Shown here: piece by piece, positions 10,220-22,016 of the stretch | Position numbering within the stretch: the first letter of the stretch is position 1 | Layout: the number at the start of each line of letters is the position of its first letter | Source: a virus | Taxonomy: Duplodnaviria; Heunggongvirae; Uroviricota; Caudoviricetes | Reading direction: 5' to 3' (one strand) | Virus record (IMG/VR): IMGVR_UViG_2548876856_000003 | Location: 1 to 22,016 of that record | Length of the DNA: 22,016 nt | The notes under the pieces: generated by a model | Told to the model about the DNA's origin: nothing | Seen by the model: the letters and a program-made list of their open reading frames with translations, nothing else | Databases searched by the model: none | Program-made: the position numbers and the translations under genes

Positions 10220-10522
10220 ATGCAGGAACATGAAAAGAGCCTTTATTCACTGCTGATTATGGGGGCGCTCATTGCTGTTGCGAAGGTGCTGGCCAGTGAT
10301 GATCCCATTACACCGCGCCTGTTTATCAGCCGTGTGATCCTGGGCAGTTTTGTTTCAGTCATCGCTGGCGCGGTGCTGATTCAAATCCCGGAGGCCAGCC
10401 CGCTGGCAATTCAGGGACTGGGGGCAGCGCTGGGTATTGCAGGTTATCAGGCTGTTGAAATGTGGCTGCGCAGACGTGCAGCGGGAAAGAAGAACGGGAG
10501 CGTGACAAATGACCCTGAGTGA
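10220..10522 (+). CDS. Holin (three predicted transmembrane segments)
   Basis: 100 aa with three hydrophobic stretches and a charged C-terminal tail (RRRAAGKKNGSVTNDPE). Immediately upstream of the endolysin. AGGAAG RBS. Confidence 0.7.
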   Translation: MQEHEKSLYSLLIMGALIAVAKVLASDDPITPRLFISRVILGSFVSVIAGAVLIQIPEASPLAIQGLGAALGIAGYQAVEMWLRRRAAGKKNGSVTNDPE

Positions 10523-11783: not shown

Positions 11784-13747
11784 AACAGTTAGATTTTACA
11801 TTAAGCCTTATTGATAAATTGTCCCTCCCGTTAAAACAGGCGCAGGGCAACGTAACGGGCTTTGCTGAAAAATCAAAAGAAGCCTTTATGCAGACTGGTG
11901 GCGGTGTTCTGGCGCTGGCGGGTACAGGGATGGCCATTAAAGGTGCGCTGATGCCCGCTATTGAAATGTATGACGCGCTGAATGATGCGGCCGCAAAAGG
12001 GATCGATGATTCTGCTCTTAAGGCCGTTCAGCGTGATGCGCTGCGCTTCAGTACAACCTACGGCGCCAGTGCGGTGGAGTTTGTCCAGTCCACGGAAAGT
12101 ATAAACGCCTCCATTGCCGGGCTGACCGGGAATGAGCTGCCGAAAGTGACGAAAGTCGCCAATACCCTGGCGTTTGCGCTCAAATCCACCGCAGCGGAAA
12201 CCGCTGAGTTTATGGGGCAGATGTTCGGTAACTTTTCCGCCGATGCCAACCGGCTGGGAAAGGTTGAGTTTGCTGAACAACTGGCCGGAAAAATGGTGTA
12301 CATGCGCAAAACCTTTGGCACGGAAATGGCTGCTATCAAGGATTTGATGGAAGGGGCGCGCGGCGTGGGTACTAACTACGGCGTGGGACTGGATGAACAG
12401 CTGGCCGTGCTGGGACAGCTTCAGCGGACACTGGGCACGGAAGCCAGCAGCGCTTATGAAGGCTTCATGACCGGAGCCATTGAGGGCGGTAAAAAGCTGG
12501 GACTGTCCTTCACGGATTCCACCGGCAAAATGCTGTCCATGCCTGAAATGCTGATCAAGTTACAGGGCAAGTATGGCAAAAGTCTGGAAGGGAATCTGAA
12601 AGCCCAGGCTGAACTGGATGCGGCATTTGGTGACAGTTCTGCGGTGGTGAAACACCTTTATGGCAATGTGGCGCTGCTTCAGCGCAATATCACAGAACTG
12701 GGCGGTGCAGATGGTCTGAAGCGTACCCAGGAAATGGCGCAGAAAATGGTGAAGCCGTGGGATCGCTTTGTCGCAATCCTGAAGGCTATCCAAACCGTGA
12801 TTGGCCTGACGCTGATCCCGGTGCTCTATCCAGTTCTGAACCGCCTGGCTGATATGGGGCAGACTTTTGCCCGCTGGATGCAGCTGTTTCCCAACATTGC
12901 GCGTGTTGTCGGGTATGCGGCAATGGCCTTGCTCAGCTTTGCGGCTGTGGGTGCTGTCGCCAATATTGTTATGGGTGCCTCTAAATTCATCATGATGGGG
13001 TTGCGCGGGATCTGGGTGGCGCTGATGGCCGTCACGAAAATTTACACTGCCACTGTCTGGCTGGGAAACATTGCCGTTGTTGCCTGGAACGCCACGCTGA
13101 AATTTCTGCGCGGTACGTTGCTGGCGGTTCGTATGGCGGCAATGATGGCCGGGATAGGTATCAATCTGATGAGCTGGCCGATCCTGCTGGTGATTGGTGC
13201 CGTCGCCTTACTTGCTGCCGGTTGCTGGCTGCTGATTAAGCACTGGGACACGGTAAAGAACGCGGTCATGGATACCGCTGCATTTCAGGCATGCGCCAGT
13301 GTAGTGGAATGGCTGGCCGGGGTGTTTACTTCAGCCTGGCAGTTTATCAGCGAAGGATGGAACAGTTTTATTTCCATGCTGACCGGGTTTTCTCCTTCAC
13401 AGGCATTAAGCGGTCTGGCCACGGGTATTGTTTCGTTGTTTGATAATGTCTGGCTATCCGTTAAAAACGGTTTTCTGAAGTCGTGGAACTGGATTGTTGA
13501 GAAACTGAATAAAATCCCCGGTGTGGATATATCAATGGCCAGTACCACTTCACCACCATTAACTGGAAATACGTTGTCAACGGGTGGAGAGATAAAAGGA
13601 ATTGATAAGGGCGGGATAAATAAAACAATCAGTAGCAATTCTAAATCAGTCACTGATAACAGCAAAAAAATAGGGGAGGTTCATTTCCATACCAAAGAAG
13701 CGATGTCCCCTGGTCAGTTAATGGAATGGCAGGAGCTAAATGCGTGA
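11780..13747 (+). CDS. Tail tape measure protein
   Basis: 655 aa. Alpha-helical, Ala/Leu-rich N-terminal half, a central block of hydrophobic segments and a C-terminal Ser/Thr-rich region. Located directly after the chaperone frameshift pair. Confidence 0.85.
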   Translation: MKQLDFTLSLIDKLSLPLKQAQGNVTGFAEKSKEAFMQTGGGVLALAGTGMAIKGALMPAIEMYDALNDAAAKGIDDSALKAVQRDALRFSTTYGASAVEFVQSTESINASIAGLTGNELPKVTKVANTLAFALKSTAAETAEFMGQMFGNFSADANRLGKVEFAEQLAGKMVYMRKTFGTEMAAIKDLMEGARGVGTNYGVGLDEQLAVLGQLQRTLGTEASSAYEGFMTGAIEGGKKLGLSFTDSTGKMLSMPEMLIKLQGKYGKSLEGNLKAQAELDAAFGDSSAVVKHLYGNVALLQRNITELGGADGLKRTQEMAQKMVKPWDRFVAILKAIQTVIGLTLIPVLYPVLNRLADMGQTFARWMQLFPNIARVVGYAAMALLSFAAVGAVANIVMGASKFIMMGLRGIWVALMAVTKIYTATVWLGNIAVVAWNATLKFLRGTLLAVRMAAMMAGIGINLMSWPILLVIGAVALLAAGCWLLIKHWDTVKNAVMDTAAFQACASVVEWLAGVFTSAWQFISEGWNSFISMLTGFSPSQALSGLATGIVSLFDNVWLSVKNGFLKSWNWIVEKLNKIPGVDISMASTTSPPLTGNTLSTGGEIKGIDKGGINKTISSNSKSVTDNSKKIGEVHFHTKEAMSPGQLMEWQELNA

Positions 13748-15844: not shown

Positions 15845-17419
15845 ATGTCACAGACAGCTATCACGCTGGCATTTGAACACTGGAAAGCGCAGCAGGGTGC
15901 TACTGGCGAACCAGTGGTGCTTGATGAATTTGTGTTTGCCAGTGTGCCCGGACTGAACCCTGATGCCCCCATTGACCGAAATGAAAAACTGCCACCGGCT
16001 GCACAGATTGTTTACCGGCAGCCCGTTACCCGCACCGGTGTGGTGAATGAAAACGGAGTGGTGTACTCCGCCGTACTGGGGGCAGATGTGGGGGATTTCA
16101 GTTTTAACTGGATCGGTCTGCTGAATAAAGCCAGCGGAACGCTGGCGATGATTGTTTATGCACCGGTGCAGCAAAAGCTGAAAACAAAAGAAGGCCAGCA
16201 GGGTAACGTCCTTACCCGCTCATTCCTGATGGAATACAACGGCGCCCAGACCGAAACCGGAATTACTACACCGGCTGAGACGTGGCAGATCGATTTCACT
16301 GCGCGTATGGCCGGAATGGATGAACGCCAGCGCCTGGAAAACGTGGACATTTACGGCACAGCGGCGTTTTTCGGTGATGGCTGGCTGGTCAGCAAAACCG
16401 GTAATCAGTTTTTCTTGACTAAAGGCACCGGCTATGTGGCGGGGTTACGTGCGTCACTGGCGGCAAACCAGAATATTGCTGTTACCGCAAAGCCGGTAAA
16501 AGTCTGGCTGGATGTGTGCTGGGCGGGAGCGCTGACCAGTGTCTGGAATGTTCAGAGCAAGATTACCGTAGCGGAAAACCTGGCTGATTATGTGCAGAAC
16601 GGCGTAAAGCATTACGTGTTTGCGGTGGCCAGCATTGATGCGAATGGAAATATCAACGATTTGCGGCCAAAAGGGACGCTGAATGAGCAACAGGCAAGCA
16701 ACGATTATCTGCGTAAAGATGCCAGTCTTGCTGATGTAAAAGACAAACCAAAAGCGCGAAAAAACCTTGCGCTTGGAGAGCTGGCGACCCTCGACAGAAA
16801 TGATGTGTTGCCGGTGGGGATACCGGTACCCTGGCCAACGGATACGCCACCAACCGGATGGACATTGATGCAAGGACAGGCTTTTGATAAATCGGCTTAT
16901 CCATTGCTCGCGGGTGCGTATCCTTCCGGGATCATACCTGATATGCGTGGCTGGATAATTAAAGGGAAACCGGCCAGCGGCCGTGCAGTGCTTTCACAGG
17001 AACTGGATGGCATCAAGTCACATACTCACAGCGCAAGTGCATCAAATACGGACTTAGGCACTAAATCAAGCAGTGCCTTTGATTACGGTACTAAAACGGT
17101 CAGCACATTTGACTATGGCACTAAAACCACTAACAGCACCGGAGAGCATGCGCACGGTATAGCTGTTGGTAACACTGGTGCAGGTAATGGCGTTTCAGCG
17201 GGTTATAACTCAGGACTGGGCAATGGAAAGACGGGGAGTGCAGGAGCGCACGCCCATACGGTTGGTATTGGCGCTCATAACCACACCGTCGGAATTGGTG
17301 CTCACAGTCACACGGTGGCAATTGGTGCTCATGGGCACACCATTACTGTGAACGCTGCTGGTAACGCAGAAAACACTGTTAAAAACATTGCTTATAACTA
17401 CATTGTGAGGCTTGCCTGA
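15845..17419 (+). CDS. Tail fibre protein with C-terminal His-x-His repeats
   Basis: 524 aa, AAGGAG RBS. C-terminal region has repeated GAH-x-HTVGI units and ends [11 protein letters not shown], a C-terminus I recognise from enterobacterial phage tail fibres. Followed by a fibre assembly gene. Confidence 0.85.
17246..17350 (+). repeat. Tandem 27-bp (9-codon) imperfect repeats, 3.9 copies, encoding AH-x-HTVGIG units
   Basis: Read directly: GCGCACGCCCATACGGTTGGTATTGGC / GCTCATAACCACACCGTCGGAATTGGT / GCTCACAGTCACACGGTGGCAATTGGT / GCTCATGGGCACACCATTACTGTG, in frame with the fibre gene. Confidence 0.7.
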
Positions 17420-18006
17420 TGACTTTCAAAATGACCGACCAGGATCGGATTATCACTGTTTACAACCTGCTGGAGAGCACCCGGGAATTTATTGGCAAAG
17501 GTGATGCGTTCATTCCTGCCTATACCGGCTTACCAGCCAATTGCACCACGATAGAACCTCCGAAAGCAAAAGCCGGGTTTACTGCCGTTTTTGATGCTGA
17601 GAATCAGGAATGGATTCTCAGTGAAGACCATCGCGGTGAGGTGGTTTTTAGCACCGAAACGGGGCTTGAAGTTACGATCACGGAGCCAGGTACTTATCCG
17701 GACGGAACGACCACTATTGCCCCGGAAAATCCGTGTCAGAAATGGGACGGTGGCGCATGGGTCGATGATGAAGATGCGGCGCGTGAAGCGCAGGTTAATG
17801 AAGCGGAAGCACATAAGAAAACCCTGCTTAATCTGGCAAACGGGGCTATTGCGACATTACAGGATGCCGTTGATCTTGATATGGCAACGGACGACGAAAA
17901 ACAGAGCCTGGTTGAGTTCAAAAAATTCCGTGTGCTGTTAAGTCGTATTAACCCGGAAGATGCACCAGATATTGTCTGGCCGGAGGTACCGGGTAATGTG
18001 GCGTGA
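17419..18006 (+). CDS. Tail fibre assembly protein (Tfa / P2 gpG-like chaperone)
   Basis: 195 aa immediately after the fibre gene, start overlapping the fibre stop by 1 nt. C-terminus has the KKFRVLLSRINPEDAPDIVWPEVP pattern typical of tail fibre assembly proteins. Confidence 0.8.
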   Translation: MTFKMTDQDRIITVYNLLESTREFIGKGDAFIPAYTGLPANCTTIEPPKAKAGFTAVFDAENQEWILSEDHRGEVVFSTETGLEVTITEPGTYPDGTTTIAPENPCQKWDGGAWVDDEDAAREAQVNEAEAHKKTLLNLANGAIATLQDAVDLDMATDDEKQSLVEFKKFRVLLSRINPEDAPDIVWPEVPGNVA

Positions 18007-18721: not shown

Positions 18722-19238
18722 TGGTGAAGCCATACCGCTGAAGAATATTCGTGTGACTGTCTCGCAGCAGTTTCAGGATAAAGACCAGTCCGGGCAGACC
18801 AGCGCCACGACCAAATCAGAGCAGGGTGCAAAGGGAAAAGAGCTGCGTATCAGTGGCGAAATACCATTTAAAAAGCCGGAGATCCTGAAGCGTATTTTTG
18901 AGCTGGCCAGCGCCACCGATACCGGAGGCAATCGCCAGAAATACCGTGTTGCCCACGAGGTGGCCAGAGCCGTTAATTTTCGTGAGGCAACGTTCAGCGG
19001 AACGCTGGATGCCCCACAGCAGGACGGGAAAATGGCCTGGCTGGTCACGTTTACGCTAGCAGAGCATATCAGCGTGCAGGAAAAGCGGGAAGCCCGGGCA
19101 ATAGGCAAAACGTCTGCCCAAAAACAGACTGCCGGTAATGCGGGACAGCCTGGCAGTAAGAGTGCCGGGGAAGATGAAGAAAAACTGACGTGGTTTGAAA
19201 AACGAGTGCTGAAACCCGTCAATGATGCTTTGGGTTAA
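18693..19238 (+). CDS. Hypothetical phage protein (possible baseplate or tail component)
   Basis: 181 aa. AAGGAA RBS 6 nt upstream. Overlaps both neighbours. No motif recognised. Confidence 0.4.
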   Translation: MTSIPTLALNGEAIPLKNIRVTVSQQFQDKDQSGQTSATTKSEQGAKGKELRISGEIPFKKPEILKRIFELASATDTGGNRQKYRVAHEVARAVNFREATFSGTLDAPQQDGKMAWLVTFTLAEHISVQEKREARAIGKTSAQKQTAGNAGQPGSKSAGEDEEKLTWFEKRVLKPVNDALG

Positions 19239-20941
19239 TGATGAAACCAGTTAAACGCCTGTACCTTTCAACGGATGAAGTTCACCTGGCTGAGGCCAGC
19301 CTAGTGCTGGAGCTGAACAGCTGCGGCCGGGGATTTATCACTGCACAGACAGCCACGGATTACACCGGGAAACTGGTACGGCTGGATGTGGGATATTCCG
19401 ATCTGCTTTTGCGCTGGTTTACAGGTTATGTGGAACGCTCACAACCTGCCGAAAACGGTTTTCATCGTCTGTTTGTGCGCGAGCTGGTCGGCGTATTTGA
19501 AAGGATGTGGCCATGTTCATTTCAGCATCCCACTTTGCGCAAGGTAGCCAGCTGGCTGGAGGAAAACAGCGGAATTGCTGTCAGTGTGCCGGATGCCCCA
19601 TACAGCGATAAACCGATCCCCCATTTCACCCACAATGGCACTGGCTATCAGTTGCTGAATAATCTGGGCAGAGCATTCAGTATCCCGGATTACATCTGGT
19701 ACCAGTTGCCGGATGGTTCTCTGTATGTGGGCGGCGCGGAAAAAGCGCTGTTTGCCGGTCGTCCGGTCGATATCCCGGCAGAGTTCAGCCAGGGGGCGGC
19801 TGGCGGTAATTCCATGACGCTGCCGGTGATCCAGAGTCTGCGGCCGGGTGTGGAGCTGAACGGGGAGCGCGTGACCAAAGTTCATCTGACCAATGACACC
19901 ATGGCCATCACCTGGACACCCAGAAACCGCGCAACAGGTCAGCCATTACAGAAAACACCTGCACAGCGCCAGATTGAAAGCCATTACCCGGAACTGGCTT
20001 CCGGGCTGCATCTGCCAAAACTGGCCAGAGTGGTGGCACCCAGCGAGGAGGTGAAAAGCGGTAATTTTGCCGACCCGTTCCGGCCGCGCTATGCCGTTGA
20101 TGTGCAGCTGCTTGATGCAGACGGCAACCCGGACAACCAGACGCCGGTTTATTCTGCGGTGCCGCTGCCGGTACCTATGGCCGGGAATGACTCTGGCATG
20201 TTCCAGTTCCCACCAGAAGGGACGCTGGTTGAAGTTGCGTTTACCGGAGGCCGCCCGGATAAACCGTTTATCAGGCAGACACTGCCGGATGGTACCAGCC
20301 TGCCGGATGTTAAGCCCGGTGAGCAGCTGCAACAGCAGCGGGCTGAAGTGTCGCAGCGTGTTACCCAGGCTGGCGACTGGGTGAGGCAGACCGATCAGAC
20401 CATCAGCGAAACATCGATGGCGCGGACGGTTAAAGCCGATACGGAACAGCGTGATCTGGTCACTCGTGAAACCACGGTTAAAGCCACTGATAAGACTACG
20501 GTGCTGGGTACCTCCACCCTGATGGCGGGAGCCATTCAACAGGTGAGTGCCGGTGATTTTAGCCAGGCCGTGAAGGGTAACAGACTGGCCAGTATTGAAG
20601 GCAATGACGAAACCGATATTTCCGGGAAACAGTCCACTAAGGTGGCCGGAACCGTGGATGTTGATGTGGGGGGAACCCTGACTGAAAAGATTGCTGCATT
20701 ACGCAAATCTGTGGCATCGGGCGGTCAGCAGATTATGGGGCCAACCGTCCATATTGGCAGTGAGAGCGTCAACACCCTGACCATGATGCTGGACACCATT
20801 GATTTACTGGCAGAGCTGGCGCAGCAGTGTGCGAGCCATTCACACCCCAGCGTGGGTACGCCAACCAATGCCGGCGCATTTACCCAGACAGCAGAGAAGG
20901 CCGGACAGACCCGGAGTAAGTACCAGAAAATAATCGCCTGA
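19238..20941 (+). CDS. Baseplate central spike protein, gpV-like, with roughly 280-aa N-terminal extension
   Basis: 567 aa. The mid-protein segment FPPEGTLVEVAFTGGRPDKPFI fits the gpV/gp5 OB-fold signature. C-terminal region is Thr/Val-rich (beta-helix-like) and ends with SHSHP, an HxH motif like the metal-binding spike apex. Followed by an intrinsic terminator. Confidence 0.6.
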   Translation: MMKPVKRLYLSTDEVHLAEASLVLELNSCGRGFITAQTATDYTGKLVRLDVGYSDLLLRWFTGYVERSQPAENGFHRLFVRELVGVFERMWPCSFQHPTLRKVASWLEENSGIAVSVPDAPYSDKPIPHFTHNGTGYQLLNNLGRAFSIPDYIWYQLPDGSLYVGGAEKALFAGRPVDIPAEFSQGAAGGNSMTLPVIQSLRPGVELNGERVTKVHLTNDTMAITWTPRNRATGQPLQKTPAQRQIESHYPELASGLHLPKLARVVAPSEEVKSGNFADPFRPRYAVDVQLLDADGNPDNQTPVYSAVPLPVPMAGNDSGMFQFPPEGTLVEVAFTGGRPDKPFIRQTLPDGTSLPDVKPGEQLQQQRAEVSQRVTQAGDWVRQTDQTISETSMARTVKADTEQRDLVTRETTVKATDKTTVLGTSTLMAGAIQQVSAGDFSQAVKGNRLASIEGNDETDISGKQSTKVAGTVDVDVGGTLTEKIAALRKSVASGGQQIMGPTVHIGSESVNTLTMMLDTIDLLAELAQQCASHSHPSVGTPTNAGAFTQTAEKAGQTRSKYQKIIA

Positions 20942-20952
20942 TCATCCCATCG

Positions 20953-20978
20953 GCCCGCGCATGTTACGGGCTTTTTTG
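20953..20978 (+). terminator. Rho-independent terminator closing the rightward late operon
   Basis: GCCCG (20953-20957), a 9-nt loop, CGGGC (20967-20971), then TTTTTT (20972-20977), 12 nt after the spike stop codon. Confidence 0.65.
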
Positions 20979-21208
20979 TACCCATCCCCAGACCCCACAA
21001 GACGCATTCTAAGCGCTTCTTTCATCTGACCACTACCGCGCAAGACCACAAAAGGATCTGTGCTGTCACGCTACGCTGACGGCGTTACACGCTGACAAAA
21101 TAAATCTTTCGGAGACAAAAACGGCACTACACCGCACCCGCCTGCGGTTTCTGGATCGATAAAATTTTTCAGTTTTCTTTTTCTACAAACCCGAGCACCA
21201 GACAGCGC

Positions 21209-21241
21209 CAGTTCTGGCAGCTTTGCGGAAAACCAGAACTG
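21209..21241. repeat. 9-bp perfect inverted repeat CAGTTCTGG / CCAGAACTG with a 15-nt spacer
   Basis: Read directly from the sequence. The right arm overlaps an 11-bp motif, CAGAACTGAAA, that recurs at 21439-21449. Confidence 0.5.
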
Positions 21242-21491
21242 AAAAGTATGAAAGGAATTTCAGTATTTTTCAGTGAAAAAGATTAGTGAAGGAGCACTTA
21301 TTGGTTGTAACCAACAGATAAACAAGAAAAAATGATTTTTTTGTGAGTTTTGTAAATTGATAGCTTGTGATAATAGGTTATCGAAGGAAGCCCACATCTG
21401 AGAGTTGGTGCGGGCTGGTTAGAAGTTTACATAATCAACAGAACTGAAATTTTCTAAAATTTAAAGTGCACTGTTCCGATTTTAGGTTTTA

Positions 21492-22001
21492 TTAATTCAT
21501 CAGTTTCTTTTGCTTTGCAGCAGACGTAATTACCTTTTTATTTATAGTAAATACATTTATTTCTGGCACGGATGTATAATCACCATCATCAGTGATGATA
21601 TTCGTAATGCCATGGTTTAACATAGTTTCATGAATCATGAGGTCATAACCATCTAAGGTATTTCCAGTCATTTTTGATGCACAAGCATCTGTTAATTTTT
21701 GGCATATTGTTAAGTCAACTTGCGGTGCAATCTGTTTTACTTGAGCCCACGAAACCTCAACTTCTTTCATTGCAAGTTGCCTTTCCTTTGCATATTTATG
21801 CCTGAATTCCTTAGTCCTAATATTTGATTTTATTGTTGCCTCGTGTATTTCTCTTTCAGTGGACTCAATTATATGTGCGAGTTCGGCTAAAGATAAGCCA
21901 GAGTGAAACAGTTGTGAGTTGTTAGAAATACAATCGCTAATAAAATTAACGTAGGTATTTAGATACTGTCTGTTAGACGGTATGCCTTTTGTATAAGTCA
22001 T
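21492..22001 (-). CDS. Hypothetical protein, AT-rich; weak PIN-like nuclease pattern in the C-terminal half; may extend beyond the window end
   Basis: 169-aa ORF from the track. The frame is still open for the 15 nt between the ATG and the window end, so the true start may lie outside. The segment DLMIHETMLNHGITNIITDDGDY resembles the C-terminal strand-helix-strand of PIN-domain nucleases. AT-rich, unlike the phage genes. Confidence 0.45.
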   Translation of the reverse strand: MTYTKGIPSNRQYLNTYVNFISDCISNNSQLFHSGLSLAELAHIIESTEREIHEATIKSNIRTKEFRHKYAKERQLAMKEVEVSWAQVKQIAPQVDLTICQKLTDACASKMTGNTLDGYDLMIHETMLNHGITNIITDDGDYTSVPEINVFTINKKVITSAAKQKKLMN

Positions 22002-22016
22002 CCAATACCAAACATT

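Follow-up and report, generated by a model that had tools for sequence, protein, structure and literature searches.

What does a truncated, AT-rich open reading frame (ORF) at the extreme end of a tailed-phage sequence encode? This question is raised by the right end of the 22,016-nucleotide stretch of viral DNA analysed here (hereafter, the window), where the initial annotation described a minus-strand, AT-rich ORF facing the tail operon. The description holds, as the ORF occupies positions 21492-22016, has a GC content of 34.5% as opposed to 52.3% in window 1-20941, and is convergent with the plus-strand tail genes, which end with the gene at 19238-20941. Our reading, to which we assign a probability of about 0.92, is that the edge ORF is vapC, encoding the PIN-nuclease toxin of the VapKSC system, and that the operon to which it belongs is AT-rich cargo of a prophage. 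The features on which the argument relies are the following:

19238..20941, plus strand: last structural gene, 567 aa, used as an anchor; its homolog in phage ESSI2_ev129 is annotated as 'baseplate protein'
20942..21491, no strand: non-coding spacer from the last tail/baseplate gene to the vapC stop codon; GC 42%, no internal ORF of 50 aa or more
20953..20977, plus strand: the tail operon's likely intrinsic terminator; a 9-nt loop between the stem arms GCCCG and CGGGC, followed by TTTTTT
21492..22016, minus strand: 3' part of vapC (codons 30-203 and the stop codon), from the window translation and the identity with contig L004

On the minus strand, vapC terminates with TAA at 21494-21492, and from there to base 22016 its frame is uninterrupted, for a total of 174 codons. 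The peptide DLMIHETMLNHGITNIITDDGDYTSVPEINVF, from which a "weak PIN-like signature" had originally been proposed, is found in the translation. Against the Pfam PIN profile PF01850, whose gathering threshold is 23.6 bits, the in-window fragment reaches 21.5 bits (E 4e-4) and thus falls short, while searches of the same fragment in PADLOC, NCBIfam and PHROGs returned chance-level matches only. Two of its matches, to BrxF (E 0.0075) and to a ParB-like family (E 0.018), were discarded as noise. The window by itself therefore gives weak evidence for a PIN toxin, the PIN match being below threshold and the catalytic Asp28 lying outside, and the cautious wording of the initial annotation was a fair one for the window alone. 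The sole in-window ATG of the edge ORF, at 22001, would give a 169-aa ORF; it was rejected as the vapC start, since the crystallised VapC has 203 aa and since neither strand 1 nor Asp28 would be present in the shorter product. The truncated 169-aa form is used in at least one database entry, that of MetaClust member P0004.

Extension of the sequence rightwards, which had been suggested as a check, was made possible by contig L004, a valid extension of the window since the two are identical base for base across window positions 20942-22016. In L004 the full vapC gene lies at 12255-12866 on the minus strand and encodes 203 aa, followed further to the right by vapS, vapK and mntR. The ORF had rightly been suspected of being cut by the window edge: 29 N-terminal codons are missing (MAYSGIILANVFDIGKYSPTKDDKFLVDT; virtual coordinates 22017-22103), so that the window portion of VapC starts at N30. 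The catalytic Asp28 is thus encoded two codons past the window end, and the whole canonical PIN strand-1 motif, KFLVD28TN, is within the 29 absent codons. The full-length protein passes the Pfam PIN threshold (29.7 bits, E 1e-6) and is identical at 183 of 203 residues (90%, E 4e-122; 20 substitutions) to the crystallised chain C of PDB 9z7o, "Escherichia VapC". The acidic residues are conserved as well, as D28, E74, T171, D172, D173 and D175 are invariant even with respect to a 28%-identical homolog from Bacteroidia, and the PIN assignment is borne out. At 90% clustering, VapC and VapS from this locus group with WP_135559718.1 and WP_135559717.1, which are the accessions given in the paper describing the system.

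The same arrangement recurs elsewhere. The last 817 bases of the window are 100% identical to two complete Escherichia coli chromosomes, one of which is JNE25-001 (L001), where vapC is annotated as a 'PIN domain-containing protein' of 203 aa. The exact 567-aa tail protein (19238-20941) used as an anchor is present in 113 blocks of the collection and, among the matches listed, it is followed to the right in 6/6 by genes for a PIN protein (203 aa), a DUF4325 protein (116 aa) and a 297-aa protein, and then by mntR. For VapC, 84 contigs are on record with precisely this sequence. In six independent contigs with the K-S-C-mntR arrangement, VapC and VapS are 100% identical and VapK is 99.7-100% identical.

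The two partner genes are located just outside the window, where an antitoxin or a sensor had been anticipated, and both kinds of protein are indeed found there. On the minus strand the gene order is vapK, vapS, vapC; one nucleotide is shared by the vapS stop and the vapC start (TAATG), vapK and vapS are separated by 4 nt, and the three genes are translationally coupled. VapS is a 116-aa STAS/DUF4325 protein (profile search, E 3e-17) matching no DNA-binding family, and is ~96% identical to both 9z7o chain A and VapS of Escherichia sp. E4736. VapK, of 297 or 302 aa, is a kinase of the STAS+GHKL type, 92% identical to E4736 VapK, although with 23.4 bits it does not reach the Pfam HATPase_c cut-off of 26.4. 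Upstream of vapK a TTGAAA-16-TG-GATAGT site came up in a promoter scan, but sites of this kind were no more numerous than in shuffled sequence. As for profile searches, which had also been suggested, the PIN profile is passed by the full-length protein, whereas the defence-system profiles gave nothing: PADLOC v2 (2023) and NCBIfam yielded no meaningful match to full-length VapK, VapS or VapC. These collections predate or omit VapKSC, and, as they are blind to it, the annotation of its loci still goes no further than 'PIN domain-containing protein'.

VapKSC is a three-gene kinase/antitoxin/toxin anti-phage system from Escherichia sp. E4736 (Chambers, Rani, Min, Villa and Corbett, EMBO J 2026, PMC13373217), also available as a bioRxiv preprint of February 2026, with the structure PDB 9z7o. 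Expression of E4736 VapC on its own is toxic, and toxicity is lost in the D28A mutant (PMC13373217). VapS and VapC form a 2:2 complex via the VapS STAS domain, in which the C-terminal helix of VapS (residues 94-116) comes to ~6 Å from the Mg2+ active site of VapC (PMC13373217). VapS neutralises VapC toxicity, but its phosphomimetic S48E mutant and a C-terminal deletion do not, and with S48E co-purification with VapC is lost (PMC13373217). The E4736 operon confers ~100-fold (about 2 logs) protection against the T5-like phage Bas42, which is abolished by VapC D28A, VapS S48A or VapK F54A (PMC13373217). The activation of VapK by single-stranded DNA (ssDNA) is, in the published system, an AlphaFold 3 prediction only, since VapK is insoluble (PMC13373217). 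The locus studied here carries an allele of this system, characterised structurally and genetically in 2026 and thus already known; the three-gene architecture and each of VapC, VapS and VapK were found.

According to the published model, VapS would keep VapC inactive in the 2:2 complex until ssDNA, arising from infection or DNA damage and predicted to activate the STAS+GHKL kinase VapK, triggers phosphorylation of VapS at Ser48, a step that the authors infer. Phosphorylation of VapS would free VapC, which would then cleave rRNA or tRNA (again the authors' inference), leading to growth arrest and to phage protection of the abortive-infection type. The residues required in E4736 are conserved here: VapC D28, VapS S48, the VapS C-terminal helix (residues 94-116 are identical to those of E4736 VapS) and the VapK phenylalanines, Phe49 and Phe57 in the 297-aa numbering, the former becoming Phe54 in the 302-aa numbering. 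The function of the window's own allele as a toxin and defence effector, as the initial annotation had guessed, is thus to be expected by homology to the E4736 ortholog, as E4736 VapC is toxic and is neutralised by VapS, and as the E4736 operon, whose VapC, VapS and VapK are 90-96% identical to those here, is worth ~2 logs against Bas42.

One detail of the published numbering deserves a comment. The residue called 'F54' in VapK is an alanine in the 297-aa sequence of the paper's appendix (start MFNTKTG), in which phenylalanines are found at 49 and 57, while 'F54' agrees with translation from an in-frame ATG located five codons further upstream, which gives 302 aa (start MAGRNMF). The start region is at L004:14114-14129 and L010:8738-8753, and the protein cluster of VapK includes a JGI/IMG gene call of 302 aa. 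The mismatch, together with this gene call, leaves the true start of vapK uncertain.

Among the known systems close to VapKSC are the CapK/CapS regulators of immune operons, from which it has been described as a derived toxin-antitoxin system (PMC13373217). Both couple a GHKL+STAS kinase to a STAS substrate phosphorylated at a conserved Ser/Thr, with ssDNA as the proposed trigger. However, CapS is a wHTH DNA-binding repressor, CapK has an N-terminal HTH and the output is transcription, whereas VapS has no DNA-binding domain and inhibits a nuclease directly. In the SpoIIAB/SpoIIAA and RsbW/RsbV modules a GHKL serine kinase of the anti-sigma type phosphorylates a conserved Ser of its STAS partner, altering the binding of the latter. 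This comparison was drawn by Chambers et al. (PMC13373217). VapKSC differs from these modules in that a nuclease toxin, rather than a sigma factor, is freed and in that the operon has no phosphatase gene. A further likeness, by context and not by profile, is to PIN.4, which shares the DUF4325 context (Matelska et al. 2017, NAR 45:6995, PMC5499597). PIN.4 was defined as a PIN subgroup coupled to DUF4325 genes and set apart from the PIN groups of toxin-antitoxin type, with no function assigned and no kinase partner noted (PMC5499597).

Of the other readings of the locus, the one that survives best, although we consider it very improbable, is a classical type II VapBC pair, whose main role would be to stabilise the prophage by addiction and whose upstream gene would encode a DNA-binding VapB. 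Classical VapBC has in common with VapKSC a PIN toxin with acidic Mg2+ residues, held by an antitoxin encoded immediately upstream; the PIN/VapC-like fold, the toxicity of the ortholog and the location in a mobile element agree with such a pair, and stabilisation of the carrier could come as a by-product of any toxin-antitoxin module. However, classical VapBC antitoxins belong to the AbrB, RHH, HTH or PhD types, whereas VapS has a STAS fold, and the upstream gene here, itself preceded by a kinase gene, matches only DUF4325/STAS-like families and encodes no DNA-binding domain. It is this combination of a kinase gene and a STAS antitoxin devoid of a DNA-binding domain that excludes the classical architecture. 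Moreover, VapB displaces Mg2+ while VapS leaves it in place (PMC13373217), the release of the toxin is proposed to occur via phosphorylation and not via proteolysis, and a third gene, the kinase, is present. The separation of the DUF4325-coupled PIN.4 from the toxin-antitoxin PIN groups by Matelska et al. (2017) also speaks against a VapBC pair, as does the fact that the related ESSI2 phages manage without the module. Thus, the idea of an antitoxin partner for the edge ORF stands as far as the existence of an upstream antitoxin is concerned, but has to be refined as to its type, since VapS is not of the classical DNA-binding VapB kind.

The second part of the VapKSC reading, that the operon is prophage cargo, depends on the genomic context. 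The element carrying vapKSC is a P2-like prophage (Peduoviridae, Quadragintavirus-like) of ~32 kb, located between mntS and mntR and spanning from the integrase to attR, with a backbone ~85% identical to the Peduoviridae (Quadragintavirus) phages ESSI2_ev129, ev015 and ev040. By comparing an empty mntS-mntR site (L012) with both junctions of JNE25-001, the att sites were mapped to an 11-bp core, GCTATATTATA, which is present at both attL and attR and in a single copy in the empty site; on the upstream side of mntR, homology to the E. coli core genome starts again at a distance of only about 120 nt. Since neither the Rfam nor the tRNA scan of the window gave a hit, the integration site is not a tRNA. 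The operon lies between the last tail gene and attR. Its placement at a phage boundary by the initial annotation is therefore right in that it is at the prophage end, near attR, but it is inside the att boundaries rather than in the adjacent host DNA.

Different members of this prophage family carry different cargo in the slot that separates attR from the last tail gene (window 20942-21491; L010:10613-11922; NC_049394.1 29934-30927 and 1-231). In ESSI2_ev129, the only ESSI2 phage checked for slot content, it holds a hexapeptide 'serine acetyltransferase' and a small ORF, and vapKSC is absent from the ESSI2 phages. In E4736 the slot contains a 198-aa hexapeptide acyltransferase, a 67-aa ORF and vapKSC, while in the window it contains vapKSC only, plus the 550-nt degraded spacer. 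The E4736 locus thus resembles the present one in the K-S-C order, the site next to mntR and the prophage tail genes alongside, and differs from it by the acyltransferase gene and the 67-aa ORF, additional cargo that separates vapC from the tail gene. Given the slot of E4736 and the prophage tail genes beside mntR, the published type system is likewise carried by a prophage of this family at this site. The main text of Chambers et al. makes no mention of this prophage context; the word 'prophage' occurs once in the text, in a different connection, and not at all in the supplements.

Parts of the spacer in the window are 72-78% identical to the backbone flanking the ESSI2_ev129 acetyltransferase and to the sequence adjoining vapC in E4736; judged by these identities, the spacer is a degraded backbone remnant of the variable cargo slot. 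The likely terminator at 20953..20977 had been missed by the terminator scan because its 9-nt loop is above the 8-nt limit of the scan. The state of the spacer is also an argument for considering the edge ORF itself as a decaying remnant or pseudogene, non-functional today, that dates from an old insertion at the end of the prophage, and the database entry calling only a 169-aa product (P0004) could be read in the same way. Decay is nonetheless excluded by the three intact ORFs, the near-identity of the genes over six contigs and the occurrence of the exact VapC on 84 contigs; translational coupling and the conservation of all the residues functionally required in the ortholog point in the same direction, and we regard this reading as extremely improbable.

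When the locus (by megablast) and VapC (by tblastn) were searched against 50,697 phage records, no match was obtained. The weakest reading, to which we give practically no credence, is a phage housekeeping nuclease, such as an RNase H/FEN-like PIN enzyme serving prophage replication or host takeover: PIN-like nucleases are known in phage replication modules and the gene is within the prophage boundaries, but its 90% identity to a characterised toxin, its GC content 18 points under the phage backbone and its absence from the closest sequenced phages and from all the phage records just mentioned exclude it, and the gene moreover converges on the late operon and is always linked to VapS and VapK.

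A scan of the GTDB species-representative genomes returned a single distant relative, in Bacteroidia bacterium PG1894_40 (L003:7643-8528), where a VapS-like gene (118 aa) overlaps a VapC-like gene (188 aa) as in VapKSC. The VapS homolog has a Thr at the position of S48, and no VapK homolog was found in the 16.5-kb locus; the pair may represent a kinase-less VapSC variant. The genes upstream of the pair apparently encode 2-oxoacid:ferredoxin oxidoreductase subunits, as judged by eye from their translations. The IMG/VR scan, in turn, identified six viral contigs (L015-L020) with VapC relatives of 31-46% identity, and a collinear K-S-C triad was present in 6/6. In the two contigs examined, L015 and L018, the triad is beside integrase, terminase, DnaB, RecT or anti-repressor genes, and the phages are unrelated to the prophage of the window. 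The attR slot shared by this locus and the type strain, the six complete viral triads and the unrelated-phage neighbours in L015 and L018 together raise the idea that VapKSC is mainly a cargo ('moron') system of temperate phages, a generalisation that we offer tentatively and hold to be doubtful in this broad form.

As the system was already characterised in 2026, no new biology can be claimed for the edge ORF, and the sole point that goes beyond the published account is that VapKSC is prophage cargo. The occurrence of the type system and of this allele in the same slot of one prophage family, along with triads in unrelated (pro)viral contigs, would frame VapKSC as a phage-borne system of inter-phage defence. 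P2-like phages replicate by the rolling-circle mode with ssDNA intermediates. With ssDNA as the proposed trigger and a rolling-circle phage as the carrier, the carrier would need, in its lytic growth, to avoid the system that it encodes, to time it or to turn it to its own use, which raises the question of how an ssDNA-sensing system and such a phage coexist.

In the prophage of JNE25-001 a 594-aa KAP-family P-loop NTPase is encoded between the integrase and the CI repressor (L002:18445-20229) and matches the PADLOC candidate family PDC-S49 with an E of 1e-128; it is a probable second defence cargo, at the other end of that prophage. Finally, three stretches of the window (10276-10505, 13531-13592 and 16690-17976) have no alignment to the JNE25-001 prophage (blastn, E ≤ 1e-10) and are flanked by sequences 89-97% identical. 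The biggest of them takes in the tail-fibre assembly gene together with the portion of the tail-fibre gene that encodes the C-terminal part, which suggests a mosaic exchange of the host-range module.
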